Positions 8,960 through 37,160 of a stretch of 37,308 nucleotides of DNA are shown in pieces. Within the stretch, counting starts at the first letter, position 1, and every line of letters starts with the position of its first letter. The notes beneath the pieces were generated by a model. That model made no database searches. It was not told the origin of the DNA and saw only the letters and a program-made list of their open reading frames with translations. Origin of the DNA: Bacillota bacterium (GTDB lineage Bacteria; Bacillota; Clostridia; Acetivibrionales; DTU013); assembly GCA_023415815.1 (NCBI GenBank), contig JAEZJL010000160.1, forward strand, positions 1 through 37,308. Reading direction: 5' to 3'. Both the position numbers and the translations under genes were made by a program.

Positions 8960-9030
8960 TCCCATTGTCCCTTTTACATCACGGAGCAATAATATAAAAT
9001 AATAGCAATAATAAAGATGGAGATTCAGGC

Positions 9031-10068: not shown

Positions 10069-10244
10069 GCAGGAGGGTTAAAGCGGCCAAACACACGCCT
10101 TTTGAGTAAAGGCTGCACGTTTTTGACACTTCATTCAGGTCCTTATTTGCTCCTTTCACCTGTTCAGCCGAGCCTTTAAACCCTTTTTTATGGAATCAAC
10201 CGCGGATTTGTGTCACAATGATACCGGAAGGAGGCTTAAAACGA

Positions 10245-10640: not shown

Positions 10641-10684
10641 CTCTGCCGGGAGTAAGGTCAGGCTGAATAAATGGAGGCTGGAAA

Positions 10685-12246: not shown

Positions 12247-12252
12247 CGGCAT

Positions 12253-13795: not shown

Positions 13796-13833
13796 ATTCG
13801 GCCCCGATCAATTAAATCACTGGATTTATTTTA

Positions 13834-14634: not shown

Positions 14635-14653
14635 ACTTTAACCCTCCCGGTCC

Positions 14654-15433: not shown

Positions 15434-15494
15434 ATTTCGCTCCTGAAAAAAGGATTTTTCACTGATATTTATATCGGCTTTTGAATACAAAGCC

Positions 15495-15543
15495 TTAACA
15501 AAAATAAACCGGACAGGATTTGAAGTACTGCTTCCCTGTCCGG
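15495..15543 (-). terminator. Rho-independent terminator after mreB
   Basis: On the minus strand: CCGGACAGG, a 17-nt loop, CCTGTCCGG, then TTTATTTTTGTT. It begins 28 nt after the mreB stop. Confidence 0.6.
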
Positions 15544-15571
15544 CTATTTATGTACTATAAAGATTGCGCTT

Positions 15572-16606: not shown

Positions 16607-16716
16607 GAAATCACACCCCTTTATACAAGCTTTTTAAGCCCAGTAATGCTTTGAAATTTATTCAAGACAATATTTATCCCGTTAAGCATTGAAAATAAAC
16701 CCAACTTCACAAAATA

Positions 16717-16744
16717 ATATTATCATATAATTATAATATTGCAA
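16717..16744 (-). promoter_or_regulatory. Candidate sigma-A-type promoter for mreB
   Basis: The minus strand reads TTGCAA, a 16-nt spacer, then TAATAT. The region is AT-rich and offers alternative hexamers, so the call is weak. Confidence 0.25.
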
Positions 16745-16760
16745 GAATTTTGTACAGCGC

Positions 16761-16789
16761 AAAAACAGGAGCGTATAAATACGCTCCTG
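16761..16789 (-). terminator. Rho-independent terminator after spoIIID
   Basis: CAGGAGCGTA-taaa-TACGCTCCTG (10-bp perfect stem), followed on the minus strand by TTTTT. Confidence 0.7.
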
Positions 16790-16820
16790 CTCCCTGCGCG
16801 TGTATCGTATTTATTTAAAA

Positions 16821-17084
16821 TCAGACAGCCTTTGCATTGCCTCCCTGATATTTTGCCTTGGTAGCCTCGCCGCCCCTTATATGTCTCTCCGCCTTGTTTT
16901 CCTCTAGTACGCCTCTTACATTATTTGCAAGCTCGGGCCTGACCCGGTTCAGTCTTTCGGTAACATCCTTGTGTACCGTGCTTTTGCTTATACCGAATTT
17001 TTTGGCAGCCGCCCTCACGGTAGTTTTCTTTTCGATTATAAAGTTCGCAAGCTCTACCGCCCTCTCTTCAATATATCCTTTCAA
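16821..17084 (-). CDS. spoIIID: Sporulation transcriptional regulator SpoIIID
   Basis: (M)KGYIEERAVELANFIIEKKTTVRAAAKKFGISKSTVHKDVTERL...RHIRGGEATKAKY is near-collinear with B. subtilis SpoIIID. TTG start. Confidence 0.95.
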   Translation of the reverse strand: MKGYIEERAVELANFIIEKKTTVRAAAKKFGISKSTVHKDVTERLNRVRPELANNVRGVLEENKAERHIRGGEATKAKYQGGNAKAV

Positions 17085-17235
17085 CTATGTACCCCCCTCT
17101 TCAAGTCATACTATGGAGAAATATTAAAACCGGCGTATCTACAAGCTTTGTCCGGGGTTTGTTAACCTGTCACTACAGTATATATATGCCCTGCCGGGTG
17201 CCGTTATTCCAGACGGACGAAAAAACTCGGGACAG

Positions 17236-17274
17236 TAAAAAAACAGGGAACGGATTTTTTCACCCATTCCCTGT
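17236..17274 (-). terminator. Rho-independent terminator after the M23 peptidase gene
   Basis: On the minus strand: ACAGGGAA, a 16-nt loop, TTCCCTGT, then TTTTTTTAC. Confidence 0.6.
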
Positions 17275-17292
17275 TTTCTATCAAATTATGCC

Positions 17293-18162
17293 TCAGTTCT
17301 TCTCTGCCGTATTTTTCGGAAGATACGAGGCCGGATCAACGTTTACATTGTCCTTAAGTACCTCAAAATGCAGGTGCGGCTGTTCCGCGGATTCAAAGGA
17401 GGCCGTATTGCCGACGCTTCCTATGATATCACCCTGCTTGATTTTCTGGTTTACCGTGACCATGTCCTCGGACGCAAGATTTGAATAAACCGATTTCAGG
17501 CCGTTGCTGTGGTCGATGACTACGACTATGCCGAAGCGCGGGTCATTTTTAATATCGGTCACCACTCCGTCGGCAGCCGCCTTTACGGGCGTCCCTCTGT
17601 CCGCGGCCAGATCAATTCCCTCGTGTGTGCGCCATTCCTCCAGGGTTTTGGAATAGACCAGCTTGTCCTTGGCATATTCAAAGGTGACCTCTCCCGAAAC
17701 AGGCATTGCTAAACTTTGCTGTTTTGCGGCAGTAGTGCCTTTAGCTGTGCTTGACGTCTTGGGTGCGGTCGTCTTGGCGGGCGGGGCGGGTGCTTTAGGC
17801 GCGGCATCCTTGGGCTCGCTGCCCTTCTGAGGCGCCTTGACATCATTGGTCTTGGCCGGTGCCGTCGCCGTATCGCTCACCGCTTTTTCCTGGTTGTTTT
17901 CCGAGGCTGCTGTCCCTATCTGCTCCTGGGCATTCAGGCTGCCTCCCGCATTTACTTCAGAATTTGTCGCATTATCGTCCGGTATAATATTCTGTGCATC
18001 ATAATCGGGCTTATCCGAGGTAGCGTTGCGCGACGTTACATATACGGCAGTTCCCGCCACCACAGCTATACACAATAACAGGACAATATAGAATCCTTTC
18101 TTGTCCAGAAATTCCCTGATGCCTCTTTTAGCTCCCTTTTCTTCTGGAAACAGCTTTTTCAT
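17293..18162 (-). CDS. spoIIQ: Membrane-anchored M23/LytM peptidase in the SpoIIQ position
   Basis: ORF 17293..18201. ATG 18162 follows GGAGGTGG. It has a TM (FYIVLLLCIAVVAGTAVYV), a low-complexity Ala/Pro/Lys/Thr linker and a LytM domain with HEGIDL and HLHFEV. It lies immediately upstream of spoIIID, as in Bacillus and Clostridium. Confidence 0.7.
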   Translation of the reverse strand: MKKLFPEEKGAKRGIREFLDKKGFYIVLLLCIAVVAGTAVYVTSRNATSDKPDYDAQNIIPDDNATNSEVNAGGSLNAQEQIGTAASENNQEKAVSDTATAPAKTNDVKAPQKGSEPKDAAPKAPAPPAKTTAPKTSSTAKGTTAAKQQSLAMPVSGEVTFEYAKDKLVYSKTLEEWRTHEGIDLAADRGTPVKAAADGVVTDIKNDPRFGIVVVIDHSNGLKSVYSNLASEDMVTVNQKIKQGDIIGSVGNTASFESAEQPHLHFEVLKDNVNVDPASYLPKNTAEKN

Positions 18163-18229
18163 ATTCACAAATTCCACCTCCGTATAGTATTGTTTCCGCA
18201 TATGGGAGCAATATACATACGAGGTGAAA

Positions 18230-19240
18230 TTATTTCGTTAAAGCCAGCTTATCAACGCTTGTAAGCTCTATACCGGTGTAATAGTGCTTCAGGATCTCGT
18301 CGTAGGTGCCGCCTTTTTTCGCCAGTGCATCGGCCCCCCACTGGCTCATCCCGACGCCGTGCCCGTAGCCCAGCGTAGTGATTTTCAACGCGTCGCCGCC
18401 CGATTTCTCAATTGAGAAATTTGCCGAACGCAGCCCCAGCAGGGTTCGGAATTCGGTCCCCTTCAGATTAATATTCCAGATTTTCAGGGTTTTAACCCTT
18501 CCGCCCGTAGTATGGTCAAGTATTTTTATGCTTGCTGCAGCGTCCTTGCCGGGTTTTGCATCCGGGTAAGCCGCTTTGAGCTTCTCTGCCAGGTCGGCCG
18601 TCTTGATCGTCACAACCGCCTTGTAATCCTTGTTGTATTTATCGTCGCTGCTGTCGACGCTTCTCAGGTATGGTACGCTTACTCCGTTCCAGACCTCCTC
18701 GGAATTTTCGGTTTTGCCTCCGCTGTTTGAGTGAAAAAGAGTATTGGCAATTTTCCCGTCATAGGTGGCTATGATGCCCCTTGTCTCGGCGACAGCCCTC
18801 TCTATCCTGCTCCAGTTCCTGGCTCCAAATAAAATGCCCCAGCCCTTCATGGCCGCGGACTTGCTGGTCCACGCCTGGCAATGCGACGGGTCCGTGCATA
18901 GCCCCTTGGGGTCGTGGACGCCCTCCTTTGATTTATAGGCGCCGGTAAGACGGCCGTATGCAAAGCTTCTTGCGGCCACCGCCTGGGCCTTCAGCGCTTC
19001 GATATCGAATTGCGCCGGCATTTCGGCTGCAAGGACGCCTTTCAGATATTCCTCGAGGTCCATTACGGTTTCGGTGTTATTTTCCATATCGTAAACGGTT
19101 ATCGGTATGCTCTCCGTCTTCTGCTTCTCCGGCATTTCCGGCGCTTTTTCGGGACTTCGGCCGCAGCCTTTGACTATGAGCATGGGCAGTATAATGACGG
19201 CAATAAGCATTATTCCGGCATAATAGATAAGCTTTTTCAT
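18230..19240 (-). CDS. spoIID: Stage II sporulation protein D (lytic transglycosylase)
   Basis: ORF 18230..19315. ATG 19240 follows GGGGGTAGAGG. Motifs: LKGVLAAEMP, AQAVAARSFAY, FHSNSGGKTENSEEVW, GHGVGMSQWGA. It sits next to murA, as in Bacillus. Confidence 0.9.
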   Translation of the reverse strand: MKKLIYYAGIMLIAVIILPMLIVKGCGRSPEKAPEMPEKQKTESIPITVYDMENNTETVMDLEEYLKGVLAAEMPAQFDIEALKAQAVAARSFAYGRLTGAYKSKEGVHDPKGLCTDPSHCQAWTSKSAAMKGWGILFGARNWSRIERAVAETRGIIATYDGKIANTLFHSNSGGKTENSEEVWNGVSVPYLRSVDSSDDKYNKDYKAVVTIKTADLAEKLKAAYPDAKPGKDAAASIKILDHTTGGRVKTLKIWNINLKGTEFRTLLGLRSANFSIEKSGGDALKITTLGYGHGVGMSQWGADALAKKGGTYDEILKHYYTGIELTSVDKLALTK

Positions 19241-19300
19241 TTCGGCCTCTACCCCCATACATTTATATTCGGACAAAATAAAAGTATGCTGGCAGGGGAA

Positions 19301-19401
19301 TATGCCGCTTTTCACCGCGGAAAATCGGCGGAAAACGCGCCGCTCAGATGCCGCGGGGGCTGTCAGGGCGCAATGAAAAGCTTCTATGCACTTAGCGGTG
19401 G
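19301..19401 (-). repeat. Palindromic element, 5'-truncated copy E4
   Basis: It retains only the right arm ACCGCTAAGTGCATAGAAGC... and the 3' hairpin. The junction falls at a TTTTCC microhomology. Confidence 0.8.
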
Positions 19402-19407
19402 AAAAAG

Positions 19408-19452
19408 ACCGGCAAAGCGGAAATTCTGAAGCTTGAAGCGAGGAGGCTATAA
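19408..19452 (+). pseudogene. Shorter copy of the gene-3'-end relic
   Basis: It reads TGKAEILKLEARRL*, matching the relic at 4605-4650 on the opposite strand. Confidence 0.25.
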
Positions 19453-19514
19453 TTGAAGTAAGCCTGTTAATTCATGTTTACAGAGCGGTCTAAAATAGCA
19501 ACTTTAATTTACTT

Positions 19515-19748
19515 ATATGCCGCTTTTCACCGCGGAAAATCGGCGGAAAACGCGCCGCTCAGATGCCGCGGGGCTGTCAGGGCGCAATGAAAAAGCTTCT
19601 ATGCACTTAGCGGTGGGAAAAACCTCCTTTGGCGGTCGGGACAAATTCGCCGTCCATGGCTCAGTTTGTCCCTGAAATGGACATCGTGTCCATTTCCCCG
19701 CGTCGTCGGTTTTTCCCACCGAGTGCATCACGAAGCTTTTTCAAACAC
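19515..19748 (-). repeat. Palindromic ~230-bp element, copy E3
   Basis: Its reverse complement aligns along its full length with E1, including both arm pairs and the internal hairpins. Confidence 0.85.
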
Positions 19749-19949
19749 TTATAAGCGGCTTCGAAGCAGCCTCCGAAGTGCTACCTGCTAAAAAATGCTC
19801 CAATTATTGCATAACTTACGGCATTCCCGTCCACGATAACACAAAAACTAATAAACGCCTCTGAAGCCTCCTGCAAAGCCCTGCCCACTAAATGCCCCAT
19901 TTATTACATGACTTACGGCTTCCCGGCCAGGGCAATACAAGAGCCGGGG

Positions 19950-19972
19950 AAAACCGGCACGATGCCGGTTTT
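19950..19972 (-). terminator. Rho-independent terminator-like hairpin (mirror of 4067-4089)
   Basis: The minus strand reads AAAACCGGCA-tcg-TGCCGGTTTT. It lies about 145 nt downstream of the murA stop. Confidence 0.5.
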
Positions 19973-20075
19973 AGCAACTATCGCGCCACGGACGGCGCGT
20001 TTGTTGCGACCCGGCTGATATCAGGGACCTGGCCCTGGAAGCCGTAGGAATGTAATACGGGGAAGGAAGGGGATT

Positions 20076-20110
20076 CTTAAGGGGAAAACAAGGGCTGGTT
20101 TCCCCTTAAG
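20076..20110 (-). terminator. 12-bp stem-loop directly after the murA stop (mirror of 3930-3964)
   Basis: Same sequence as the hairpin after the MutS-like gene. No U-tract. Confidence 0.35.
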
Positions 20111-21427: not shown

Positions 21428-22180
21428 TCAGTACTCCGTAGTAATCACAGGAGTTGCCAGCCACAGGTATGTCTTGTCTTCGTATGAATTGTACCTTATG
21501 GCAAGATTGAGATTTACCTTGCTGCCATTGTCGTCGACAGCCTCCTTTATGGCGCCGGAAAAGGCGGATACGCTTATGAGGCTGCCCTCCCTTATCCCCT
21601 CTACCTTTTTGGCGTCAGCCTTTGCAAAAATTCGGACGCACGCCTCATTCAGGGCGCTGTTTTCTTTTTTCCCTTCAAAGCTCCCTGTGATGCAGGAATT
21701 GAACTTCGGCCTTATGCCGTGTTTGTTGAGCGCCTTCTCCAGCACGACTCTGTCTCCGGCAAGATCCGGAGTGCGAGAGGTGTCCACCAGGCTTATTGCC
21801 ACGTAGCTCTCTCCGGAATCCCCGCTGTCTTTACCTTCAACTATATTAAAATGTATTCTCCTGCCGCCGCCGAGACTGCAGTCCAGTTCCTTACCGGCCG
21901 TACTGGGGCTGCCCGCGGAATCAATATCCGGATTAACCTCCGCTGCTCCGAGGTCCTTCAATACGTCTTTTATCATCGCTTTGCTGAAATCCTCTCCTGA
22001 CTTGCCCCATCCCCCGATTTTGCCGCGAAGATATAATTCGGAACTGACCGTCGCGGCTCCCGAGCTTTTAAACGCATCATAGAGGATTTTTTCGGGGGGA
22101 TTTGAAACTGCCTGCATTTTTATTATAAAAATAGAAATAATAAGAACAAAAAGTGTGATAATTATAGATACCTTTTTCAT
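21428..22180 (-). CDS. YwmB-like protein (DUF1779 type) with an N-terminal signal or anchor
   Basis: The call rests mainly on size (250 aa), the N-terminal hydrophobic segment and its position directly upstream of murA. B. subtilis ywmB-murAA-spoIID has the same order. Confidence 0.45.
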   Translation of the reverse strand: MKKVSIIITLFVLIISIFIIKMQAVSNPPEKILYDAFKSSGAATVSSELYLRGKIGGWGKSGEDFSKAMIKDVLKDLGAAEVNPDIDSAGSPSTAGKELDCSLGGGRRIHFNIVEGKDSGDSGESYVAISLVDTSRTPDLAGDRVVLEKALNKHGIRPKFNSCITGSFEGKKENSALNEACVRIFAKADAKKVEGIREGSLISVSAFSGAIKEAVDDNGSKVNLNLAIRYNSYEDKTYLWLATPVITTEY

Positions 22181-22293
22181 ATATATCCCCCCTTGTTTAC
22201 ATCATATCTGAATTATTGCCTCTTTGGATGGGGTATATACATGAGAAAATTTGACCCTGCTTCACTAAAATTCAATTACATTTCGTATACTTT

Positions 22294-22625
22294 CGCTTCA
22301 GCGTCAAAAGCCACATCCCATGATGGGCAGCCCGTTTTGGTGAAGGATGTGTGTCCAAGCAATATCAGCGGCAAAAGAGGGTATGCCTCTCGGGGCTCGA
22401 CCGCCAGGCCGGGTATTAAGTCCGGCTTTAGCGTCAAAAAAGAGACATGCCTCGTCGCTCAGCCGTTAAGCCGGGTATTCAAGTCCGGCTTCAGCGTCAA
22501 AAGAGGGCATACCTCTCGCGCTCGACCGCTAAGCCGGGTATTCAAGTCCAGCTTTAGCGTCAAAAGGGGACATACCTCGACGTACAGCCCGTCGACGGGA
22601 GAGGTGTGTCCCCGTCCCCTCTCCC
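22294..22625 (-). repeat. Minisatellite array 2: head plus ~5 units, reverse orientation
   Basis: The reverse complement reads GGGAGAGGGGACGGGGACACACCTCTCCCGTCGACGGGCTGTACGTCGAG, then GTATGTCCCCTTTTGACGCTAAAGCTGGACTTGAATACCCGGCTT... Unit marks on the plus strand are at 22571, 22508, 22446, 22382 and ~22313. Units decay with distance from the head. Confidence 0.9.
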
Positions 22626-22630
22626 TATTT

Positions 22631-25600
22631 TCACAGCTCCCCTGTCATTTTCAATACCTTTTCCAGAAGGACCATCGTTTCGGCGCGCGTCACAGGGTCC
22701 TTGGGACCCAGAGTATCGGTAAACCTGCTTATGATCATGCCGTTCTCTACCGCAAATCTGAGCTTTGGCAGCAGCGCGGAGCTCGCCTGCCCGATGTCCT
22801 TATAGATATCCGTACTGTCTCCGGTGGCCTTGGCCGTGTCGGAGGTCTTGATTTCATACAGCCTGACCGCCATGGCTATCAGCTTTTCCCGCGTATATTC
22901 GGCGCCCGGCTTCTGGGAATCGGCATAGGATATCAGCCCGGCTTTTACGGCCTTGGTCATATAATCGTTATCATAGCTGTAATCCAGCATGTCGAGCATG
23001 AATTTGGCTGCGTCGCTGCCGGTGATGTATTTGTCCGGCTCGAATTTCCTGCCGGTTACTGCCTTCAGCTTGTGCGCCGACGCGACATTTGCGATGGAGC
23101 CCCTTGCCCAGCTTCCCTGGATATCGCTGAAATATTCCGAACCGGGCTCTCCGACTGCCATGCGCCCAGGCATCAGCGTTTCGAAGCTTAGTAGGCCTTT
23201 TCCCGTATCGGGATCATAAGTCCCTGTCGTCTCTTCTTTTCCCCAGGTTGTTGAATCCGCCGGCAGTACATATCCTGAGGTAATCCCCTCCTTGTACCAT
23301 TCGGCCGGCGTATAACCGTACAGTACCTTGAGCGGTCTGTTCAGCTCCCTGAAGGGCTTCAATCTGCCTTCGTACGTCCCTATTTCAAGCCCGGTCACGG
23401 GCGTCTTGAAATTCAGGTTTGTCGTATCGCTCCCCGACGTGGTTGCATTGAGTACAATTGAGGTTTCTATGTTCAGGTCCTCCAGGGCCGACCTACCGGA
23501 CTGCTTGCTGTCCCAGAGCAGGCCCGGCCTGTACACAAGGGTGTTTCTATCCGACTGGACGATTAGGTTTTCACCCAGCTGCGACAGGGCTTTGAATACC
23601 TTCCCCGCAATCATGAGGGAAATCCTGTCCGTCCCAGTGGGAGGAGACGTTAGGTTGATCATATAGTCCAGGTGGTTGTCGGTCTGGACATGCTCAACGA
23701 ACCTGTCGGCATTGACGCCTATGATACTGATCCTCCATATGCGGTTCACCGACGTAGGTTCCTTTATGATGTAATCGCCGCTGATGACATTTTCGATGTC
23801 CTCATCGGAATCATAGTCGTCATTGCTCCTTTCGGTCCTCACCACAACGCTCTGCGTGGGCTCCGACCTGAGCTTTTTTACAGGGTCATACGCGTACAGA
23901 CGCGCAAAATACCTGAAGTTTGAACGCAGGTTATCCGCCTTGTATTCGGAAGCTCCGGTTATGGTGTATTCCGTCGCATCCTTGTAGTCTAGGTCCTTTC
24001 CTATCTGGAGTATATATTGCATTCCGGTTTCCGGCAACCATTCATAGGTGATGCTGTTCTTGGTAATGGCGTCCTCCGTCCCCTTGACGCCGAATCCCTT
24101 CGGAGTAGCGGGCGGAATATCCGGCTTTGTCTTTACCGGCAAAGAATCGCTCCATTCTGACAGCGCGGTTTGACCGGAATCGTTCGAAGCCTCGGCCTGT
24201 ATCCAGAAGTAGTACAGCGTATTCTTAGTGAGTCCCGTGACCCTGTAATAAGGGGAAAGCAGAAGCTGCTCAGGGGTTACTTTGACGCTTGCGCCCGCGG
24301 AATTGATATTGTCAACCGTCCCGTATTTTATGTAGTAGTTGTACTGCGGGTTCACATTCCAGCCCAGATCCACATAGACGTCAGCGGCCTCATTATAATT
24401 GAAAACGGGTACTATGGGCTTTTCAAGCGTTTCGCCAAGGTCGGGCACGGTTGTGATTATTATCGGGTCCGAAGGGCCGGATACAAGACTGACGCTCCTT
24501 CTTGCCGCCCTTACCCATACGATATAGGTAGTGTTCGGTTCAAGCTCGCTTATGGTTATATTTATATTATGCTTCTGCCCGTCGGGAATAGCACCCTCCC
24601 TATTCACGTCCTCGGCGGGATCGTTGGGAGTGACAGGCGCCCCGGTGATCTTGTTCGTGGGAAGCTGTCCGATATTGTTATAGTTAATATCGGAGGTATA
24701 TTTTACGCAGCCCACGTCAATTGTGACACCGCCGTCATAAACGACCTGCCTGTATTCAAGAGGATTGGCCGCATGGTTTTCTATCGCGGTAACCAGATCC
24801 TTTCCCAACTGTGCCGGCGTCCTGTATACCCATGCGCCTTTGCCGCCTTCCAATATCATATATTGCTCATACCATTTGTCCTGAAGCTTTATCACGGCGG
24901 TATTCTCCGTGACGGCGTCAAGTCCCGCAGGGGTCTTCGCAAGCTCAAGCGGGGGCCTTCCAGGGACTACCGGCTGGTCTATCGGGCCGCTGGTCGGGGT
25001 TATGATGACCTTCATAGCCGGAAGGGACTGCAATGTAATCTCCTGCAGAACATTGTCGACAAATTCGACATAAGACTTTTTTGCAACTATTCTGAAATAG
25101 TAGGTTGAGTTAGGTACAAGGTTTGTAAGGGGATATTTATAGCCCAGAAGCATCGTTCCGCTCATTACGAAATTGCTTTCGGTCATTTTTACTGACGAAG
25201 CGATGAGGGTGCCTGCCGGAGGGTCGCTGATCATGTTAGGGTCGCTTATGAGCCAAATGTCGTACAAAACCTCCGTGTCAACCTCTCCGTTGCCCTTTTT
25301 GGGAGCCCTCCAGAGGATGGTCGCCCTGTCGGGCTTCAACCCTTCCTTATAGCTGATAATCGTGTTTCCGGCATTGGTAAACTCGTTTACAAGCTCCGGG
25401 ACGCCCGGAGTTGAAGGTATCTCGGAATCCCTGATATATATCCTCTGCGACTGTATCCTTATCCCGGGATACACGTCCTGTCCGTTCCTGGTAACCTGAG
25501 CCCTGATGATATAATAACTGGATAAATCCTCGGGCAGCACCGTAAGGAAAAATACGGTGTCGTCCACAGTGGCCATGTATTCCTCGATACCGTCCCCGTT

Positions 25601-26545
25601 GCTCTTGAATATCTGGTAGGATATATCGATGTCGGAATCCTCCATTCCGGATACGACACGGCTCCATTCCAGCTTCCAGATGGCGCCGAAATCGGTAACG
25701 GACATTTTGGTGGTCTTGGCGAGTATGAAGCTGCTGACGATCACCGTTGGGCTCTCGGGGGATTTTTTTAGCGCATCGTCGTTTATGTCCGGCACAATTT
25801 TTATATAGTACACCCTGCCCGGATCCCTGACCCTGTGTATGTACTCCAGTTTTCCTGCAGCCTCGTTTACGGTTACGGGGCCGTCCTGGCTTATCTGCTC
25901 CTGGCCTATGTATATCGGCGGCGTATTTGCAAAGGACTTATTTTCCGATACATACAGCTTGTAATCTATACGCCGCCCTGAATTCCAGACGTCGTCCCAT
26001 GAGATTTTTATCTGATTCGGCCCGTAGGGATAAGCTTCTATGGCAATATCGGTCAGAAATCTTACGGTATTTGAAGGCGCCGATTCCGGGCTGGTAAAAG
26101 TGCTGTTATCTATGGTGTACGTGTAATAAGCCCTGGAGTAAGCGGTATAAACCGTACCGGAGGTAAGCTGTACCAGTCTGCGCGTATTAAAGGTACCCTC
26201 GGCTGTATTCGCAGGTATGTTTCCATCTTTTAAAAACACGGGCCTATAAGGCTTATAAGCCTTGTTGGACTCCTGCAGATAATAGTTCAGGTAAATGCCC
26301 ACATTGCCGGATGGGCTTGGGTCCGGCTTGTCCTGAGCGTCGCTTTTCAGATCCACATAATACCCCTCTGAACCTCTGTTTCCGATAGGCGGCTGTATGT
26401 CGGGAGCCGTATTGTACAGGGCTTCCACCCTCAGATTTTTAGGTGGCGGCTGAATGGGATTCGCGGCATATACAGGGCCGTACCATCCGAGCTGGAATAT
26501 CGTTATCATTATGAGACTAAAGCAAAGGATTCTTTTGAGCTTCAT
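22631..26545 (-). CDS. Giant secreted protein with multiple FN3-like modules and C-terminal SLH repeats
   Basis: ORF 22631..26560. ATG 26545 lies 6 nt after GAGGGGG, giving the signal peptide MKLKRILCFSLIMITIFQLGWYGPVYA. FN3-like segments include NQIKISWDDVW...YKLYV and ITYEWLP...YFARLYAYD. The C-terminus has YFSDIQGSWARGSIANV... and ...GPKDPVTRAETMVLLEKV. Confidence 0.85.
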   Translation of the reverse strand: MKLKRILCFSLIMITIFQLGWYGPVYAANPIQPPPKNLRVEALYNTAPDIQPPIGNRGSEGYYVDLKSDAQDKPDPSPSGNVGIYLNYYLQESNKAYKPYRPVFLKDGNIPANTAEGTFNTRRLVQLTSGTVYTAYSRAYYTYTIDNSTFTSPESAPSNTVRFLTDIAIEAYPYGPNQIKISWDDVWNSGRRIDYKLYVSENKSFANTPPIYIGQEQISQDGPVTVNEAAGKLEYIHRVRDPGRVYYIKIVPDINDDALKKSPESPTVIVSSFILAKTTKMSVTDFGAIWKLEWSRVVSGMEDSDIDISYQIFKSNGDGIEEYMATVDDTVFFLTVLPEDLSSYYIIRAQVTRNGQDVYPGIRIQSQRIYIRDSEIPSTPGVPELVNEFTNAGNTIISYKEGLKPDRATILWRAPKKGNGEVDTEVLYDIWLISDPNMISDPPAGTLIASSVKMTESNFVMSGTMLLGYKYPLTNLVPNSTYYFRIVAKKSYVEFVDNVLQEITLQSLPAMKVIITPTSGPIDQPVVPGRPPLELAKTPAGLDAVTENTAVIKLQDKWYEQYMILEGGKGAWVYRTPAQLGKDLVTAIENHAANPLEYRQVVYDGGVTIDVGCVKYTSDINYNNIGQLPTNKITGAPVTPNDPAEDVNREGAIPDGQKHNINITISELEPNTTYIVWVRAARRSVSLVSGPSDPIIITTVPDLGETLEKPIVPVFNYNEAADVYVDLGWNVNPQYNYYIKYGTVDNINSAGASVKVTPEQLLLSPYYRVTGLTKNTLYYFWIQAEASNDSGQTALSEWSDSLPVKTKPDIPPATPKGFGVKGTEDAITKNSITYEWLPETGMQYILQIGKDLDYKDATEYTITGASEYKADNLRSNFRYFARLYAYDPVKKLRSEPTQSVVVRTERSNDDYDSDEDIENVISGDYIIKEPTSVNRIWRISIIGVNADRFVEHVQTDNHLDYMINLTSPPTGTDRISLMIAGKVFKALSQLGENLIVQSDRNTLVYRPGLLWDSKQSGRSALEDLNIETSIVLNATTSGSDTTNLNFKTPVTGLEIGTYEGRLKPFRELNRPLKVLYGYTPAEWYKEGITSGYVLPADSTTWGKEETTGTYDPDTGKGLLSFETLMPGRMAVGEPGSEYFSDIQGSWARGSIANVASAHKLKAVTGRKFEPDKYITGSDAAKFMLDMLDYSYDNDYMTKAVKAGLISYADSQKPGAEYTREKLIAMAVRLYEIKTSDTAKATGDSTDIYKDIGQASSALLPKLRFAVENGMIISRFTDTLGPKDPVTRAETMVLLEKVLKMTGEL

Positions 26546-26599
26546 ACATATCCCCCTCATTCGCAGCGTATATATCGTAGCATCCTCTTACTGCGCTTC

Positions 26600-29500
26600 T
26601 CACATATCTCCCGTCGTTTCCAGGAGCCTGACAAAGGCCACCGTGACCTCGGCCCTTGTCATACTGCCCTCCGGAGTGAAATTCCCGCTGCTGTCGGTAC
26701 TCATAATGCCCATATCGACAATCATCATTACAGGATTGTAGTAAGCGTCTTCTATGTCCGTATCATCGTTTATATAAATATTGCCGCCGGGTCTCAAACT
26801 GTCCGCGCTGACGCCTTTTTTGGAAGAAAAGAGCTTCAGCAGCACGGCCGCCGTTTCCTCCCGTTTGACATTTTTCATCGCGCCGTTTGGATTTATGATA
26901 CCGTCGAGCCCCAGCCTGACGGTCTTTTGCTTCAGGTCGAGCCCTGAATTCGCCGCCGACCTGCCGGTCACCTTCTCGTAAATCAGTATAACCTCCCTGC
27001 AGGTAACCTTGTTATCAGGCATAAAGGAGGTGCTCATACCTGAAAACACATCGCTCAGATCGTATTTTGAAGTGAGCCTGCCGATGTAATCCTTTGCCCA
27101 GTAGCCGTCCGGCACGCCCTTCATGCCGCCCTGCATGAGCAGCACCACATATTTGCCGGTCTTTATTACATTTATTGTGACGCTGCCTGGCTCTTGCGTA
27201 TTATTAGTAATTTTTTGCCATGAAGGTGTCCCGTCGTACAGCGCATAGGGAAGCTTCGTTCCCTGTACGTCGTTACAGTTCAGGCTTGCGGAAACCGGAG
27301 CGGCAAATTCGACGATGTTCTGTGTTGCGCTTGCCAGCCTGATTGATTCTATCGTATCGTCGATATAATCCGAGAGCTCGCTTTCAATCATCTTTACAAG
27401 CCTTTCGGTATATTCTTCCATTACCTTTGACGAGCCCGAGCCGCTTCCAATGTATGCGTTCTTAAGTATGTTCAGCTTCTCACCCACAAGGCCCTTATCT
27501 TCATCGTACAGCTTTTCATAAAACAGCTTTTTCAATTCGCTGTCGGTCCTGGACGAGCCTATTGCCTGCACTTCCAGGTCATTTACGCTTGAAATGCGCT
27601 CTCCCGACGTCGGGAAATTTGTGGGCTGTGCGTCGGTACGGGCCACGATCAGCCTCAAATAAAGATCCTTCACGCCCGTTTTTGCCAGAAGCTCCTTTAT
27701 CTGCTCGTTCTCCGACGCGTCAAGCGTGTCCGGCCTTAAAAGGAATTCCGCTCCGGGAGTCTTTATCAGAAGGCTCTTGCCCGAAGAATTCATCGCCCTC
27801 ACAACGCTGACAGGCACGTATACCTCGTCCTTGTCCATATTGATGTTGATGGCGTTCATATCAATAGTAAACGTGTCCTCGGACGTGTTTTGAAGAGCAT
27901 TCACCACCCTGTCGCCCTTCAGAAGGATCCTGTCGGCCGTACCGTTGTCTATGGCTATTCTCCAATAGTAACCCTGCTCAAGCTGCTTGATCCTGTCGAG
28001 GAAGATGGCTTCCTCTTTCTCTCCGTCATCGATATCGTCATAGTCGTCCTGGTTGAATTCCGTCCTTGAATTGACCGGCCCTATGTACTTGGAGTATGAA
28101 ACGATCGCGATATCCGCCGGATCCACCTTCACCGCGCGCACTTTTACATAGTATTTCACATTCGAGCGGAGCGGCTGATGGGTGGTCAGACCTCCCGGGA
28201 GCACTACCTCGGCCCCCTTTATCCTTGCATGGAAATAAATATTATCGGCGCCTACCGTCAGCGGAGTCTCCTCCGTGTAGTAGGGCAAAAGCTTTCCGTC
28301 CTTGTCGGAATAGTATTCAAGGTCGTTTCCGGATAAAATCGTATAGTCCGAAGAGCCCTCGGCCATGATTGCTATCTCATATCTTGAAAAATCATCCACG
28401 GGCGCGCCCGTCCATTTTACCTCAAGCTCATGGTAGCCATCCCTGGTCTGAAGACCGCTTTTTTCATACACGAGCGTGCCGCTGCTGCCCGCGCCTTTGA
28501 ACACCCTGACGTCGTAGGAGGAATTGAGCTTCAGGTTCAGAAGCCTGCCGTAGTATGTCATGCCGTCGGGATCCTTGATTATGGTGGTCTGTGACCTTGT
28601 CACCTGCTTGTACTCAGTATCGTTGGAGTTTTTTGCATATACGGTATAGTCTTCAGCCGTCATGCCCGGCGTGCCGTCCGTCCAGAAAAAGCCGAGTTCG
28701 GCGGAACTAACAGCCTCAAGCCTTTCAGGGGCCTGTATGAGATGGGTAGTTACAGGTATCGAAACCCACACGCTTTCCGCCCCCGCAGTGTAGCCCGCCG
28801 GGGTGCGGGTCACCCTGACGGCCTTTAGGCTGAAGTAATAAAGCTTGTTTGGAAACATTCTCCTGTCAACGGTATAGGTGCAGATTTTTGTGGCGCTGTC
28901 ATAGGTAAATTTGCCCGGGTCGGTCTGCCTGCCTGAGCCAGGCGCGGGGTCGAGATACACAAGGCCATTGTCAATGCCGTCGCTGGGCAGGTCGTATGCC
29001 TGCAGGAAGCTTGCATATTCAGGGTCGCTCGCATGGGCGTCAAGCAGATCGGCAGGGCTGACTTTCCTGCTTGTCCGTATCAGTTGATATGCGACGTCAT
29101 TCTCCTGCCGCCGCCAGGTAAAGGTAACACTGCTCCCCGAAATCATAGGATTGCCGTCCTTGTCCGAGGCTATCGAAAAATCGGTCGGAGCCAGCGGCTT
29201 GCGCGTGCTGTCGTCCGGCGGGTTTATATCCAGTACTATGGTTGTTACGGGAAGTATGGCTGTGTCCAGGGACTCCTTCATAGTACTGGAATTGTCGGAT
29301 TTTTTCGTTATCACAAGCCTTGTCTTTGCTTTGAAATAATAAGTCGTATTTGGCTTAAGGCTGCTGCCGAAAAGATTAATGGCCGAGGCTGTCGTGAATT
29401 TAATAACCCTGGCTTTAATCGATGTGCTGGCAGGGTCGTCCGCACCCGTGAATATGATATCCCCGTGCAGATTCTCAGTGCTGCCGACCAGTACAAAGGG

Positions 29501-31582
29501 CGTGTCCGTCCTTGAATTCATGTATATGTCATAGTATATGTTATAGTTATACAGCGATGTATTATAAGTGCTTGTATAAGCGTTCCAGTCAAGGTTCATT
29601 ACCTTGTCGAACTGCAAATCCACGTAGTTGACCGGCGGAGTGACGGAGGTATCCTTTCCGTTGGCCGCAAGCCCAAAGCTCATAGGCAGTGGAACATCCA
29701 GCTCCTCTCCGTTCAGGGTAGTGAAGCTTACAACGATGGATTTATCCGACATCTTTTCCGTCAGGGTCGTCCCGGCATCCGCCGCCGTCGTGGTATACAT
29801 CTGCAGATAATAGACCGTATTGGGTAGGAGGAAGGAAGGATAATTCTCAGGATTGGGAATATCCCCGGAGACGCCGCCGGCCTTTTCCCACCTGAACAGG
29901 TCAAAGGCGTCCAGGGTGTAGTACATCCGGTTTCCGACCACCGTGATTTTTGCATTGTCCGCGTTTATATATTTCACAAGCCTGAATTTGGGCGGATAGT
30001 TGCCCCAATGCATGCCGTTGACATAAAGAGCGGTGTCTGCGGCAATATCGGTCTGGCTCGTGCTCAACAGAAAATGAAAAGACAGACTCGAGCCGGTTGT
30101 ACTCCAGTTTAAAGGCTTCTCCCAGGATATTGTTACATCGCTGGATCTTATATTTATGGGAGTTCCCCCCGAAGGCGGAGCTTTCTGCTCCGTATGGAGC
30201 ATCCTGTTCGTTATCGCTATTCCCATGGGAAGCGGCGGCCTGCTGGTATCCACTACCAGCTTATACGGCATTTTCAGCGATTCAAGCCTGTCATTGGCGC
30301 CATCGGATTTTACCACAACCCTGTAAAACACCTCATTGTTAGGGTTGACGCCCGGTATGACGGTGACGGCGTAATCGCTGCCGCTGAAGTTAGAATCGAC
30401 CATGGTAGCCTTTACGGGCCAATCGCCCGGCAGGGATGAGCTGTTCGCCGCCTGCACCTCATAGTATAGCCTTGGCAGGTCGAGGCTTCCCTGATTTATT
30501 TTATATATCTTTACATAAATGTTGTTTGCGTTGTCCTTGGTGAGCTGGAACCTGATCGGAGTATACGTGTAGGGAACCGCTCCCGACAGCAAGCTGCCGT
30601 TATAATCTGATAGGTTTCCGACAGTAACCGCGTCCACATCCCCTCCGGAGGGATCATTATAATCGGGCATGATATTCATATAATAAACAGTACCCGGCAG
30701 CAGCTCATCGTCCGGCAGGGCGTTTTCGTTGCCGGGCAGGCGGGGGGGCACCATTGAACCTACATCGCTTCTGCCCCATAATTCAAAGCTCACATAATCG
30801 CTCGCATCGGGTAATGATACGGCAGCCGGGCTGGTGATGCTCTCGGATACGTTTGCGGTATATCCGCCGCCGTTGCTTTTAACAATAATCGATGACTTAT
30901 CGGAACCTGAGTTAAGCTTTTCCTCAACAGTCGAAATATTAATCTTGAAATCGAGCTTTGAAATTTGCTTTCCGTTGTTATAGATGCCTTTAATCGCGTC
31001 CTCCATCTGCTTCAGCATATCGGGATCATTTGCCAGAATAAATTTCCCCGTGGTGGTAGAATCATCGAACCATATTCGCGGTATCTTCCATTTGAGCTTG
31101 AGCTTGGGATTCTTTCCGGATTCCCTGCCCCCTCCCGGTATTTCATCATAGGGCTGCGCGGGAGCTTCGGAATAGAAGCTGATCTTCGGCAGGTAATACA
31201 GCAAACCCTCACCGATCCTGTTGCCGGTGGGATCGCCGTTTACGTCAAGAATATCGCTGTCATACAGGGCCACTCTGAGATCATAAATATAATCAGGCTT
31301 CAAACCGGTTATCGACGCCGTGTTCGTAGTCTGCTTGAGGACGATTTTCTGCATCGTACCCAAATTCGTGTTGTCGGGCGCATGATAGGTAATAACCGCA
31401 GCCTTGATCCCGGTAAGCTGCCCGACCTCCCAGTGAAAGTCAAGCTTGCCGTTGCTGTAGCTGTTCACAACGATTTTTACCGGCTCGGCCGCCGCGAACG
31501 ACGGCGTGAAGTCGCTGAAAAAGACTCCATATGTGAGTACTGCCGCAAGTATTGCCGCAACAGTTCTTCTTATTTTTTTCAT
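26600..31582 (-). CDS. Giant secreted protein (1660 aa) with multiple FN3-like modules and C-terminal SLH repeats
   Basis: Signal peptide MKKIRRTVAAILAAVLTYGVFFSDFTPSFAAA. FN3-like blocks include LDFHWEV...YDLRVALY, VTFTWRRQENDVAYQLIR and LGFFWTDG...YDVRVF. The C-terminus has VPDGYWAKDYIGRLTSKYDL...FMPDNKVTCREVILIYEKV and FTPEGSMTRAEVTVAFVRLLE. There are 54 bp between its stop and the start of the next gene. Confidence 0.85.
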   Translation of the reverse strand: MKKIRRTVAAILAAVLTYGVFFSDFTPSFAAAEPVKIVVNSYSNGKLDFHWEVGQLTGIKAAVITYHAPDNTNLGTMQKIVLKQTTNTASITGLKPDYIYDLRVALYDSDILDVNGDPTGNRIGEGLLYYLPKISFYSEAPAQPYDEIPGGGRESGKNPKLKLKWKIPRIWFDDSTTTGKFILANDPDMLKQMEDAIKGIYNNGKQISKLDFKINISTVEEKLNSGSDKSSIIVKSNGGGYTANVSESITSPAAVSLPDASDYVSFELWGRSDVGSMVPPRLPGNENALPDDELLPGTVYYMNIMPDYNDPSGGDVDAVTVGNLSDYNGSLLSGAVPYTYTPIRFQLTKDNANNIYVKIYKINQGSLDLPRLYYEVQAANSSSLPGDWPVKATMVDSNFSGSDYAVTVIPGVNPNNEVFYRVVVKSDGANDRLESLKMPYKLVVDTSRPPLPMGIAITNRMLHTEQKAPPSGGTPINIRSSDVTISWEKPLNWSTTGSSLSFHFLLSTSQTDIAADTALYVNGMHWGNYPPKFRLVKYINADNAKITVVGNRMYYTLDAFDLFRWEKAGGVSGDIPNPENYPSFLLPNTVYYLQMYTTTAADAGTTLTEKMSDKSIVVSFTTLNGEELDVPLPMSFGLAANGKDTSVTPPVNYVDLQFDKVMNLDWNAYTSTYNTSLYNYNIYYDIYMNSRTDTPFVLVGSTENLHGDIIFTGADDPASTSIKARVIKFTTASAINLFGSSLKPNTTYYFKAKTRLVITKKSDNSSTMKESLDTAILPVTTIVLDINPPDDSTRKPLAPTDFSIASDKDGNPMISGSSVTFTWRRQENDVAYQLIRTSRKVSPADLLDAHASDPEYASFLQAYDLPSDGIDNGLVYLDPAPGSGRQTDPGKFTYDSATKICTYTVDRRMFPNKLYYFSLKAVRVTRTPAGYTAGAESVWVSIPVTTHLIQAPERLEAVSSAELGFFWTDGTPGMTAEDYTVYAKNSNDTEYKQVTRSQTTIIKDPDGMTYYGRLLNLKLNSSYDVRVFKGAGSSGTLVYEKSGLQTRDGYHELEVKWTGAPVDDFSRYEIAIMAEGSSDYTILSGNDLEYYSDKDGKLLPYYTEETPLTVGADNIYFHARIKGAEVVLPGGLTTHQPLRSNVKYYVKVRAVKVDPADIAIVSYSKYIGPVNSRTEFNQDDYDDIDDGEKEEAIFLDRIKQLEQGYYWRIAIDNGTADRILLKGDRVVNALQNTSEDTFTIDMNAININMDKDEVYVPVSVVRAMNSSGKSLLIKTPGAEFLLRPDTLDASENEQIKELLAKTGVKDLYLRLIVARTDAQPTNFPTSGERISSVNDLEVQAIGSSRTDSELKKLFYEKLYDEDKGLVGEKLNILKNAYIGSGSGSSKVMEEYTERLVKMIESELSDYIDDTIESIRLASATQNIVEFAAPVSASLNCNDVQGTKLPYALYDGTPSWQKITNNTQEPGSVTINVIKTGKYVVLLMQGGMKGVPDGYWAKDYIGRLTSKYDLSDVFSGMSTSFMPDNKVTCREVILIYEKVTGRSAANSGLDLKQKTVRLGLDGIINPNGAMKNVKREETAAVLLKLFSSKKGVSADSLRPGGNIYINDDTDIEDAYYNPVMMIVDMGIMSTDSSGNFTPEGSMTRAEVTVAFVRLLETTGDM

Positions 31583-31686
31583 CGGTATACCCCCATGTTA
31601 TATGAAACATATGATTTTATAGAAACTGCCGTATCGGCATATTTCAGTTATTATATCGGCAAAAAATGGGCTGCGTTTAACTCTTA

Positions 31687-31695
31687 TGTTATAAT
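31687..31695 (+). promoter_or_regulatory. Candidate extended -10 box TGTTATAAT, 4 nt upstream of the minisatellite head
   Basis: Exact TGnTATAAT match, in the same position relative to GGGGACACACC as at 1722-1730. Confidence 0.3.
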
Positions 31696-31699
31696 GTAA

Positions 31700-31980
31700 G
31701 GGGACACACCTCTCCCGTCGGCGGACTGTGCGTCGAGGTATGTCCCCTTTCGACGCTGAAGCTGGACTTGATACCCGGCCTTGACGGGCCGAACGTTGGG
31801 ATATGTTCCTTTTGACGCTGAAGCTGGACTTGAATACCCGGCTTTAGAGGCTGGGCGTCGGGATATGTCCCCTTTTGACGTTAAAGCTGGACTTGATACC
31901 CGGCTTTAGAGGCTGGGCGTCGGGGTATGTCCCCTTTTGACGCTGAAGCTGGACTTGAATATCCGGCTTAGGCGGACTAT
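31700..31980 (+). repeat. Minisatellite array 3: head plus ~4.5 units of 62-63 bp
   Basis: The head is GGGGACACACCTCTCCCGTCGGCGGACTGTGCGTCGAG. Units are marked by TATG at 31739, 31802, 31864 and 31926. The array runs into the GAAGGAGG ribosome-binding site of the response regulator. Confidence 0.9.
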
Positions 31981-31995
31981 GTGAAGGAGGTTTGG

Positions 31996-32709
31996 ATGAA
32001 ACAGAAGATTCTTGTTGTGGATGACGAGGCGGCGATTTGCGATTTGCTTAAGATAGGCCTGGAGGCCGAGGGCTATGATGTTGCGGCGGCAAACGACGGG
32101 AGGGAGGCGCTGCTGAAGCTGGCGTCCTGGAAGCCGGACCTTCTGATCTTGGACCTTATGCTGCCCGGTTTGAATGGCTTCGACATATGTAAAAGGGTCA
32201 CTGCCGAAAATCCGATACCTATCATCATGCTGACCGCAAAAGCCGATTTAATAGACAAGGTGCTCGGTCTTGAGCTGGGAGCGGACGATTACGTCACAAA
32301 GCCGTTCCACATGCGCGAGCTGGCGGCCAGGGTCAAGGCATTGCTGAGGAGAGTCGGGGCGGAAGCCAGGACAGCTGTGCCCGGCAAACTGAAAAACGGA
32401 AGGCTCGAGCTCATTCCCGAAACCCGCAGAGTCATGCTTGACGGCGCCGAGCTTGAGCTGTCCGTCAAGGAATACGATCTGCTTTTCTTCTTTATCAATA
32501 ATATAGACCGGGTTTTTACCAGGGAGGCTCTGCTCGAAAGAGTCTGGGGCTATGATTTCACAGGCGATACGAGGACCGTCGACGTCCACATCCAGAGGCT
32601 GCGAAGCAAGCTGAAGGGCGGCGCGTACGACGGTTCATGCATACATACCGTTTTTGGCGTGGGCTACAGGATGATGAAACTTGAAGAAAGCGAGGGACCT
32701 GCTTCATGA
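31996..32709 (+). CDS. OmpR-family response regulator
   Basis: ATG 31996 lies 5 nt after GAAGGAGG. Motifs: ILVVDDE, LLILDLMLPGLNG, PIIMLTAK, GADDYVTKPF and the winged-helix region TRTVDVHIQRLRSKL. Confidence 0.9.
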   Translation: MKQKILVVDDEAAICDLLKIGLEAEGYDVAAANDGREALLKLASWKPDLLILDLMLPGLNGFDICKRVTAENPIPIIMLTAKADLIDKVLGLELGADDYVTKPFHMRELAARVKALLRRVGAEARTAVPGKLKNGRLELIPETRRVMLDGAELELSVKEYDLLFFFINNIDRVFTREALLERVWGYDFTGDTRTVDVHIQRLRSKLKGGAYDGSCIHTVFGVGYRMMKLEESEGPAS

Positions 32710-36450: not shown

Positions 36451-36638
36451 GCTGGATATTGTATAGCGTAAAAAAAGATCCAGATCAATAAGTTAAGCAT
36501 TTATATTGCATTGCGGCTTTTTTGCAAAATTCAATTACTCCTATCCAAAAGCATTTTATTATTCGCTATAATATAAACCCCAGCTCCGTCCGATATATAG
36601 CATTATTACAAATTTATGCCGTATATGGGAGTTTCTTA

Positions 36639-37160
36639 ATGATCATAAGCTATATTGAGCTGGCATTGCTGATATCCGCCGCACTCGTCAGCGACTTCCG
36701 CACTTACAGGATAGACAACCGGATTATTGCGGTATTCGTGGCAGCAGGACTTGTAACAGGCCTGGCGCTGGAAGGTCCGGACGGACTGCTCTCCTCCTTC
36801 CTGGGCATGGCGCTGCCGCTGCCGCTCCTTTTCTGGCTTTATCCCGCAAGAATGCTGGGAGCCGGAGATATAAAGCTTTACTGTGCCGCGGGAGCGGTGA
36901 CGGGAATCGGCTTCATACCATGGTGCATTGCGTGGTCCTTCCTTGCCGGAGGCCTGACGGCGCTTGCCCTGATGCTGGCGAGGCGGAATTTCCGGCAGAG
37001 GTTCCGCTATCTGGGCGGTTACCTTAAGGCGTGCTTCCTTTCAGGCTCGATCCTGGAATATTCGGAGCTCTCGGACAAAAGCGACGGCGCGAAATTCCAC
37101 TTCTCCCTGGCAATAGCGCTCGGGTCCGCGGTGCAGGTGACGCTGGCGCTGTTTTTATAG
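36639..37160 (+). CDS. A24-family prepilin-peptidase-like membrane protein (CpaA type)
   Basis: ORF 36522..37160. ATG 36639 follows GGGAG. It has two Asp motifs (SDFRTYRIDN and GAGDIKL) and multiple TM spans. Confidence 0.65.
   Translation: MIISYIELALLISAALVSDFRTYRIDNRIIAVFVAAGLVTGLALEGPDGLLSSFLGMALPLPLLFWLYPARMLGAGDIKLYCAAGAVTGIGFIPWCIAWSFLAGGLTALALMLARRNFRQRFRYLGGYLKACFLSGSILEYSELSDKSDGAKFHFSLAIALGSAVQVTLALFL

Follow-up and report, generated by a model that had tools for sequence, protein, structure and literature searches.

The BOX elements of Streptococcus pneumoniae consist of boxA and boxC modules with boxB modules in variable number between them, form stem-loops and vary in copy number between strains (PMC3049150). 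BOX modules and BIMEs alter the expression of genes transcribed together with them, up or down in the case of BOX, and SPRITE, a pneumococcal repeat resembling a Rho-independent terminator, belongs to the repeats thought to terminate or attenuate transcription when co-transcribed (PMC3049150). In invertons, an invertase, often the product of a nearby gene, binds short (10-40 nt) inverted repeats (PMC11892184). Here we describe three arrays of tandem repeat units, arrays 1-3, in a 37,308-nt stretch of DNA (contig JAEZJL010000160.1, hereafter the window) from an uncultured clostridial lineage. Probably, the three arrays represent a single small interspersed repeat, specific to this lineage, that resides in gene leaders, and not a switch.

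The arrays were compared, including their heads, their units and the corresponding array-less gaps, among the window and the contigs of relatives, labelled L013-L057. They resemble BOX in being interspersed and intergenic and in joining a fixed 5' module to tandem modules (about 45-63 nt) with predicted stem-loops and strain-variable number: three dispersed copies have a common head and 3-6 units, and the orthologous copies in L013 and L015 differ in number. Unlike BOX, the arrays have no conserved 3' module (boxC) or terminal inverted repeats, are known as three copies only, all co-oriented with the downstream gene, and occur in an uncultured clostridial host, with two of the three copies inserted exactly at the native transcription start. 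Sequence homology to boxA, boxB or boxC is unlikely, given the host lineage and GC content. The array head and the solo elements of the relative L026 also recall SPRITE and the BIME/REP attenuators, being GC-rich hairpins with a U-run at several loci. However, unlike SPRITE, the arrays have a U-tract of only 4 nt that fails a simple terminator scan, carry attached tandem units and lie ahead of genes rather than being enriched between convergent genes.

The mycobacterial interspersed repetitive unit-variable number tandem repeat (MIRU-VNTR) loci of Mycobacterium, which Supply et al. are said to have described in 1997 and 2000, are reportedly intergenic repeats of 40-100 bp within operons, found at many loci, co-oriented with genes and polymorphic in number between strains. 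Short open reading frames (ORFs) within MIRUs reportedly overlap the flanking genes' stop and start codons. Like MIRUs, the arrays are intergenic, have a period of 61-65 nt and show 5 versus 4 units between otherwise identical assemblies, with repeat collapse as a caveat. Unlike MIRUs, their period is not a constant multiple of three, no ORF runs through them and they possess a distinct head module. The likeness to invertons lies in the inverted repeats around a segment with promoters and surface-protein genes; in contrast to invertons, the arms here are degenerate tandem arrays (281-320 nt), the window contains no invertase and one orientation was seen.

Three arrays with a common head and unit

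A sequence-only reading of the window had proposed that arrays 2 and 3 form inverted arms of >280 bp, with their heads inward, around a pair of genes for giant surface proteins. This geometry is real. Array 2 occupies 22294-22613 in the minus sense (320 nt) and array 3 occupies 31700-31980 in the plus sense (281 nt), and the segments 22589-22613 (plus strand) and 31700-31724 are reverse complements at 24 of 25 positions, exactly as claimed. Both giant genes were assigned FN3 and SLH domains by Pfam, are on the minus strand and lie inside the block (giant surface protein 2, giant2, at 22631-26560; giant surface protein 1, giant1, at 26600-31582). A repeat finder reported the arms 22526-22613 and 31700-31787 as 86% complementary across 88 nt; aligned globally from end to end (320 and 281 nt), arrays 2 and 3 show 80.5% identity, and their longest common exact run is 24 nt.

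We found a third homologous array on the plus strand (array 1, 1736-2178), with six units, ahead of a gene for a MutS-related protein (2240-3922, plus strand; Pfam domains MutS_III and MutS_V, 560-aa product on record). Array 1 is 91% identical to array 2 over 88 nt, with a 40-nt exact run, and resembles it more closely than array 3 does, which indicates that arrays 2 and 3 are not a special pair. The 25-mer of the head has three matches in the window at no more than two mismatches, with 0.00 expected (none in 100 shuffles). Each of the three arrays lies in the same sense as the gene after it, and arrays 2 and 3 are mutually inverted only because ywmB and a two-component operon diverge on either side of the giant pair.

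The three arrays follow one general plan, in which a 48-nt head hairpin is followed by UUUU or UUUC, then GACGCURAAGC, and then by 3-6 tandem units of 61-65 nt. An invariant GGGGACACACCTCTCCCG opens all three, and the first unit is almost identical among them. The head of array 1 (GGGGACA...UGUCCCC; 1736-1783; -25.1 kcal/mol, z -2.65) is followed by UUUUGACG and by six tandem units of 57-63 nt detected by Tandem Repeats Finder (TRF) at 1784-2162 (nhmmer matches at 1784-1845, 1847-1904, 1912-1974, 1975-2031, 2038-2100 and 2101-2162), after which a degenerate tail reaches the ribosome-binding site (RBS) of the MutS-related gene. The head of array 2 (22566-22613, minus strand; -24.9 kcal/mol, z -2.33) begins 17 nt past the stop codon of giant2 (22631-22633). 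Its three tandem units (22388-22565; TRF) are spaced by 63 nt, and a unit profile built from 23 units matched 52-61 nt of each (22505-22565, 22442-22502 and 22388-22439, nhmmer); the tail (22294-22387) contains a degenerate fourth unit and a second, diverged head-like hairpin (GCCCAUCAUGGGAUGUGGC + UUUUGACGCUGAAGC). In array 3, the head (31700-31747, plus strand; -25.3 kcal/mol, z -1.58) and UUUCGACG precede three full units and one partial unit of 61-62 nt (31748-31977; TRF, nhmmer and unit listing). TRF gave a period of 63 at 22389-22579 and of 62 at 31726-31969. The tails of the three arrays have no sequence in common, and no terminal inverted repeat was seen. A search of Rfam 15 at the gathering threshold gave no match on the arrays, and at E <= 10 returned one chance-level match (E = 1.4).

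Position of the arrays relative to native promoters

By alignment with array-less relatives, arrays 1 and 3 are inserted downstream of the ancestral promoter of the gene they precede. At array 3, an extended -10 box TGTTATAAT (31687-31695, plus strand) lies 4 nt upstream of the head and is identical in L053, an array-less relative (histidine kinase, HK, protein 88% identical; giant1 DNA 76%) that reads CTCTTATGTTATAATGTAAGGGGAC-GGTGAAAATAC-GGAGGCTTGGATG. The distant L052 (HK 60%) has TGCTATAAT at the same distance from the start of the response regulator (RR) gene. This conservation argues that TGTTATAAT is the ancestral promoter of a WalRK-like two-component operon, predicted to fire away from the giant genes. 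The sequence-only reading had placed the box together with the giant genes in the bracketed segment; it does lie inside the block, but on the plus strand, where it would drive array 3 and the RR operon and not the giant genes. The array-less arrangement of L053 further indicates that array 3 was inserted between the promoter and start region and the RBS (GAAGGAGG, 31983-31990) of the OmpR-type RR gene (31996-32709, plus strand; 237 aa from the ATG at 31996, by Pfam and gene calls). The operon after array 3 reads RR-DUF7847-HK-PD40 and is followed by a Peptidase_A24 gene (36522-37160); the HK is termed WalK-like from the names given to its homologs in source records, and the other assignments are from Pfam.

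The arrangement at array 1 is similar. An extended -10 box TGGTATAAT (1722-1730, plus strand), read as the native promoter of the MutS-related gene from the sequence and from L057, lies upstream of the array. The array-less ortholog in L057 (85% protein identity) has GTAAAATGTATTATAATGTAATAGAGGG at the same place and reads GTAAAATGTATTATAATGTAATAGAGGGCGG... up to the RBS; the window has GTAAACTGTGGTATAATGGAGAGGGGAC and then array 1.

Array 2 precedes ywmB/SpoIIT (21428-22180, minus strand; Pfam), then murA. Immediately before the start of ywmB, a segment of ~95 nt (22181-22275, minus strand; AGTGAAGCAGGGTCAAATTTTCTCATGTATATACCCCATCCAAAGAGGCAATAATTC...) is ancestral, being kept in all relatives, the most distant at 61-62% YwmB identity, and array 2 lies upstream of it. 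It is this segment that probably represents ywmB's native promoter or leader. On the far side of array 2, a consensus scan predicted a promoter-like site, TTGAAA-16-TGtGAAAAT (22627-22654, minus strand; 9/12 with TG), that overlaps the end of the giant2 coding sequence. With this prediction included, each array copy would lie directly downstream of a -10 box and face its own gene, namely the MutS-related gene, ywmB-murA or the WalRK-like operon.

The region upstream of giant1 (31583-31686, minus strand; GTTAAACGCAGCCCATTTTTTGCCGATATAAT...) aligns with that of array-less relatives and is conserved in relatives down to 69% (TTAA..GCCC.TTTTTTGCCGATATAAT). It is probably the promoter or operator of the giant operon, placed back to back with the RR promoter; within it, a small palindrome, TGCCGTATCGGCA, occupies 31627-31639.

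The position of the arrays also bears on whether their units could act as DNA-level operators, with each 63-bp unit (six helical turns) serving as a repeated site, for example for the adjacent OmpR-type regulator. The period near 63 bp, an imperfect palindromic core AGCYGG-N10-CCGGCT in each unit and the adjacency of one array to a response-regulator gene are in line with such a role. However, the arrays lie downstream of the promoters, their period ranges from 61 to 65, and they are absent from the orthologous loci of relatives; moreover, the differences between the palindrome arms mostly retain G-U pairs, which suits an RNA rather than a DNA site. We therefore regard DNA operators as extremely improbable.

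Several other roles for the units were considered and rejected. A unit of 63 nt corresponds to 21 codons and one unit is open in frame, but the neighbouring units of 61-65 nt break the frame; sense-strand ORFs of 100 aa or more do not span any array, and the unit length is inconstant modulo 3. A sigma-70 promoter within each unit (TTGACG-17-TACCCG) has a poor -10, and the promoter scan made no call. Resemblances to CsrA, WalR and Spo0A sites, noted by eye, were dropped as inconsistent between units. An ORF at 22193-23191 (plus strand) runs through array 2, and a 62-aa gene called in L056 (1729-1917, plus strand) runs through array 1; both are probably artefacts of the repeat sequence.

Gene order and orientation around the giant gene pair

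The inverted arms had been read as a possible large invertible switch, or as the trace of a past inversion or insertion. Recombination between arrays 2 and 3, either RecA-dependent or enzyme-mediated, would flip 22.6-31.7 kb. The two-component operon and ywmB-murA would then face exchanged promoters and heads, and read-through from the giant operon would take another direction. The arms are indeed inverted, promoters and heads lie within the block, and surface-protein genes are the usual cargo of phase variation (PMC11892184). The relative L026 also has inverted single elements flanking the giant pair. However, every contig that spans both sides has the same orientation, and no flipped arrangement was found anywhere among the relatives.

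The relatives cover a wide range of divergence. Their giant1 DNA identity to the window is 100% in L013, 87% in L014 and L015, 76% in L053, 72% in L026 and L024, and 69% in L017 and L021, with L052 more distant; the lineages read on both sides of the pair extend from 100% to about 65-70%. All contigs that reach both sides (the window, L013, L015 and L052) have ywmB, giant2 and giant1 transcribed in one direction and the RR gene in the other, and all three array-bearing assemblies that span both arrays (the window, L013 and L015) are in this one orientation. L053-55 have the same arrangement of giant2, giant1 and the RR gene without arrays. In L017, L021, L024 and L026 the order is giant1-giant2-ywmB-murA-spoIID, with Peptidase_A24 or another gene upstream. 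Thus, the orientation of the giant pair relative to ywmB is the same in all six array-less or single-element lineages (L017, L021, L024, L026, L052 and L053), and its orientation relative to the two-component operon is kept in L052 and L053, the two of these six that retain that operon. The synteny comparison proposed by the sequence-only reading, in which the giant pair might have been absent or flipped in relatives, found neither.

In the window, L053 and L052, giant1 and Peptidase_A24 are separated by the RR-DUF7847-HK-PD40 genes (without DUF7847 in L052), and Peptidase_A24 follows the two-component operon alike in all three. The WalRK-like operon is missing from four intermediate lineages, in which Peptidase_A24 or another gene abuts giant1. 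The common position of Peptidase_A24 implies that L017, L021, L024 and L026 lost the operon, an indel and not an inversion, and from the contigs compared this looks like lineage-specific loss at the giant1-side site.

The array heads are in agreement with a fixed orientation. In the window and L015 alike, the head on the ywmB side has the variant TGTACG and that on the RR side TGTGCG, and the two contigs have their ywmB-side unit type in common, which argues against a net inversion since the two diverged. A further point against inversion is the arms, which are 80% identical with no more than 24 nt of exact identity. A run of 24 nt would be marginal, at the lower limit for RecA-dependent exchange. 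Array 1, inverted, pairs equally well or better with array 2, and the near-identical heads mean that a flip would alter little. Pfam scans of 30 ORFs (29 unique) out of 60 of at least 100 aa, covering the long non-overlapping ORFs of the window, revealed no recombinase, integrase or transposase, in agreement with the earlier statement that the window encodes no recombinase, although an enzyme encoded elsewhere in the genome is possible. The contigs L014 and L016 end inside arrays, which could reflect mixed orientations, or simply what any multi-copy repeat would cause. Taken together, these observations make an invertible block highly improbable.

A past insertion fares differently for the two components. 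The arrays were inserted, but the giant genes were not, as they were already present in array-less relatives, and on this comparison the gene order around the giant pair is much older than the arrays. A composite transposon was likewise rejected, the giant pair having an unchanged site and orientation in array-less relatives and the Pfam scans containing no transposase. The sequence-only reading had offered as an alternative that each array is simply a leader of its own downstream gene and that the symmetry is incidental, and it is this alternative that promoters, orientation and synteny support.

A second set of inverted repeats is present in the window. Repeats of ~1 kb at 3930-4955 and 19300-20110 are 94-98% complementary (for example, 210 nt at 97%) and flank a 14.3-kb block from an SLH/DUF4901 gene to spoIID. 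Each holds two TwoAYGGAY RNAs (RF01731), one on either strand (3982-4140 minus and 4310-4467 plus; 19587-19744 minus and 19901-20058 plus). Judged by their length and complementarity, these repeats are a far better candidate substrate for homologous inversion than the arrays. The assembly of sample ERZ28598223 breaks at them: its scaffold_594 apparently corresponds to window positions 1-19954, and its scaffold_213 begins near 20026. TwoAYGGAY copies are also found downstream of murA, two in L014 (11911-12385; 87% giant1 identity) and one in L026 (12122-12279; 72%), with none at the gathering threshold in L017 and L021; the motif behaves like a repeated element at the murA locus. Direct duplications in the TwoAYGGAY regions of the window (4303-4536 versus 4718-4950, with 164 nt and 67 nt at 94%; 19300-19358 versus 19515-19573, 59 nt at 100%) imply local tandem amplification of these elements too.

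Structure, turnover and possible effect of the arrays

The arrays are young compared with the genes around them. The unit profile matched only the window and L013-L016, and the gap between giant2 and ywmB is 111-215 bp in array-less relatives versus 450 bp in the window. Between L013 and the window, identity is 100% across giant1, giant2, ywmB and murA (~10.9 kb aligned), and despite these identical flanks array 3 has five units in L013 (141-459) versus four in the window (31748-31977), a difference that is either true VNTR polymorphism or assembly collapse. L015 (87% giant1 identity) has four units in array 2 and six in array 3, and the interior units of the latter are of a different type (...GATGAACCTGGGTGCCGAGGTATCTCTACG), with the head and first unit nearly unchanged. 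This pattern of presence, absence and turnover suggests that the arrays are gained and lost between close lineages and that each is homogenised internally. The number and type of units most likely shift through slippage, unequal crossing-over or conversion.

In L026 (72% giant1 identity) the giant pair is flanked on either side by a single hairpin element whose head faces inward (~650-716, minus; 9862-9914, plus). The element toward Peptidase_A24 reads TAGGGAGAGGGGACAGTTCTGCAAGGAACCTATCCGAGAACCGTCCCCTTTTGACGCTAAAGC and that toward ywmB reads GGGACAGTTCT...AGAACTGTCCCATTTCGTCGCTAAAGC; both solo elements keep GGGGAC-stem-GUCCCC and UUUUGACGCUAAAGC. L024, as distant as L026, has neither flanking element, so the inverted geometry either predates the expansion of the arrays or arose twice. 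The diverged second head-like copy in the tail of array 2 (GGACACACATCC...GCCCATCATGGGATGTGGCTTTTGACGCTGAAGC) is at the position of the L026 element beside ywmB. Given this shared position, an older solo element may underlie the array, and the newer array 2 may have been built over it.

Outside these relatives, no further array was detected. Among the GTDB representative genomes, a two-anchor unit pattern gave 12 loci, and a scan of these by regular expression and unit profile revealed no array in any of them. Four of these loci, in Clostridia/Bacillota metagenome-assembled genomes, were read individually and also held no array, three of them being the argC C-terminus ...IDEKTGL. In JGI metagenome contigs, the unit core gave 24 single matches and, on the same follow-up scan, no arrays, and in viral contigs the head query gave one match that diverged right after the 17-mer.

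The 48-nt head is predicted to form the hairpin GGGGACA.ACCUC...GAGGU.UGUCCCC at about -25 kcal/mol, with z from -1.6 to -2.7. In the L026 elements the outer GGGGAC/GUCCCC and the U-run are kept, and the inner stem is different yet complementary (GUUCU/AGAAC; -19 kcal/mol, z ~-2.6). This is the strongest sign that what has been preserved is the hairpin as such. For each unit, the prediction is a hairpin of ~10 bp (CURAAGCYGG-loop-CCGGCUUUAG) with a short closing helix, and UUUU is preceded by a mini-hairpin, GGGG-UAUGU-CCCC. In five of six arrays, folding is better for the sense than for the antisense strand (for example, -0.44 versus -0.35 kcal/mol per nt), and the proposed helices are paired to 79% in sense versus 72% in antisense (main hairpin, 84% versus 72%). 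RNAalifold found no consensus structure on the MAFFT-aligned units, and covariation was then scored on hand-defined helices; paired cells amounted to 79.3% versus 77.9% in shuffles (17 of 500 as high), the sole measure slightly above the shuffles. An RNA-level function of the units is therefore only putative.

A more specialised form of such a function would be a dedicated cis-regulatory RNA, in which the units bind a protein or ligand and form a tandem attenuator or riboswitch-like leader that co-regulates three operons. The leader is indeed common to three operons, two of them envelope-related (ywmB-murA and the WalRK-like operon), and the predicted hairpins are stable. Against this, the orthologous operons of close relatives are entirely without arrays, neither the type nor the number of units is conserved, and the units show no covariation and no Rfam match. 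We consider a dedicated regulator of this kind very unlikely.

A serious alternative, although an unlikely one, sees in the arrays neutral or selfish minisatellites, spreading through ectopic conversion or a mechanism like that of miniature inverted-repeat transposable elements, growing by slippage and having no role in expression, their position near promoters reflecting only where insertions are tolerated. Their patchy presence among close relatives, the very fast turnover of unit number and type, the lack of significant covariation and the functionally unrelated downstream genes are all consistent with this. It accounts less well for the insertion of two of the three copies within a few nt of the native transcription start and the co-orientation of all three with the downstream gene, for the survival of hairpin and U-tract where the sequences of the window and L026 differ by compensatory change, and for the sense strand being favoured in folding. 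In addition, a transcribed, structured leader of 300-450 nt would be unlikely to be neutral for expression.

We thus favour the interpretation of the arrays as one lineage-specific interspersed repeat in gene leaders. Judging from the promoter positions, an array inserted between the transcription start region and the RBS would be transcribed as a long 5' leader. Its stacked hairpin and U-tract modules may cause partial premature termination or pausing, its 5'-terminal hairpin may alter mRNA stability, and the number of units could act as a tuning knob, so that modulation of the downstream operon in cis is most likely the effect in the cell. The modules of array 2 could also buffer read-through from the giant operon.

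Several results weigh against this interpretation. Covariation across 23 units and 18 pairs was not significant (score 0.198 versus 0.193 shuffled, with 160 of 500 shuffles as high). The U-tracts contain only 4 U, and a terminator scan requiring at least 5 T in 8 called no head or unit. The conserved ywmB-proximal region downstream of array 2 may hold the real ywmB promoter, in which case array 2 may be an intergenic spacer and not a true 5' untranslated region (UTR). The copies known number only three and all come from one 37-kb window, with no further arrays in the GTDB or JGI scans, and short-read assemblies show only the majority orientation of the block.

A bolder possibility, which we hold to be quite unlikely, is an undescribed repeat that targets promoter-proximal sites. 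It would copy itself, by conversion or another mechanism, downstream of starts of the TATAAT-N4-6-GGGGAC type and act as a multi-module attenuator dependent on copy number, tuning essential envelope operons (walRK-like and ywmB-murA) heritably at the level of the strain.

The locus carries a caution, as long inverted arrays around surface-protein genes can mimic a phase-variation switch, and here they are co-oriented leader insertions on divergent operons. In this uncultured clostridial lineage, the arrays represent an interspersed repeat family that was unannotated, belongs to a known general kind and gave no match in Rfam, the GTDB representative genomes or the JGI metagenomes. Two points could make the family useful, namely that two of the three copies are at the transcription starts of unrelated operons and that the number of units varies between otherwise identical assemblies. 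Strains in metagenomes could be typed with the arrays as VNTR markers, and if the number of units alters read-through, they would provide a simple natural system for tunable attenuation and for the gain of structure in a 5' UTR.

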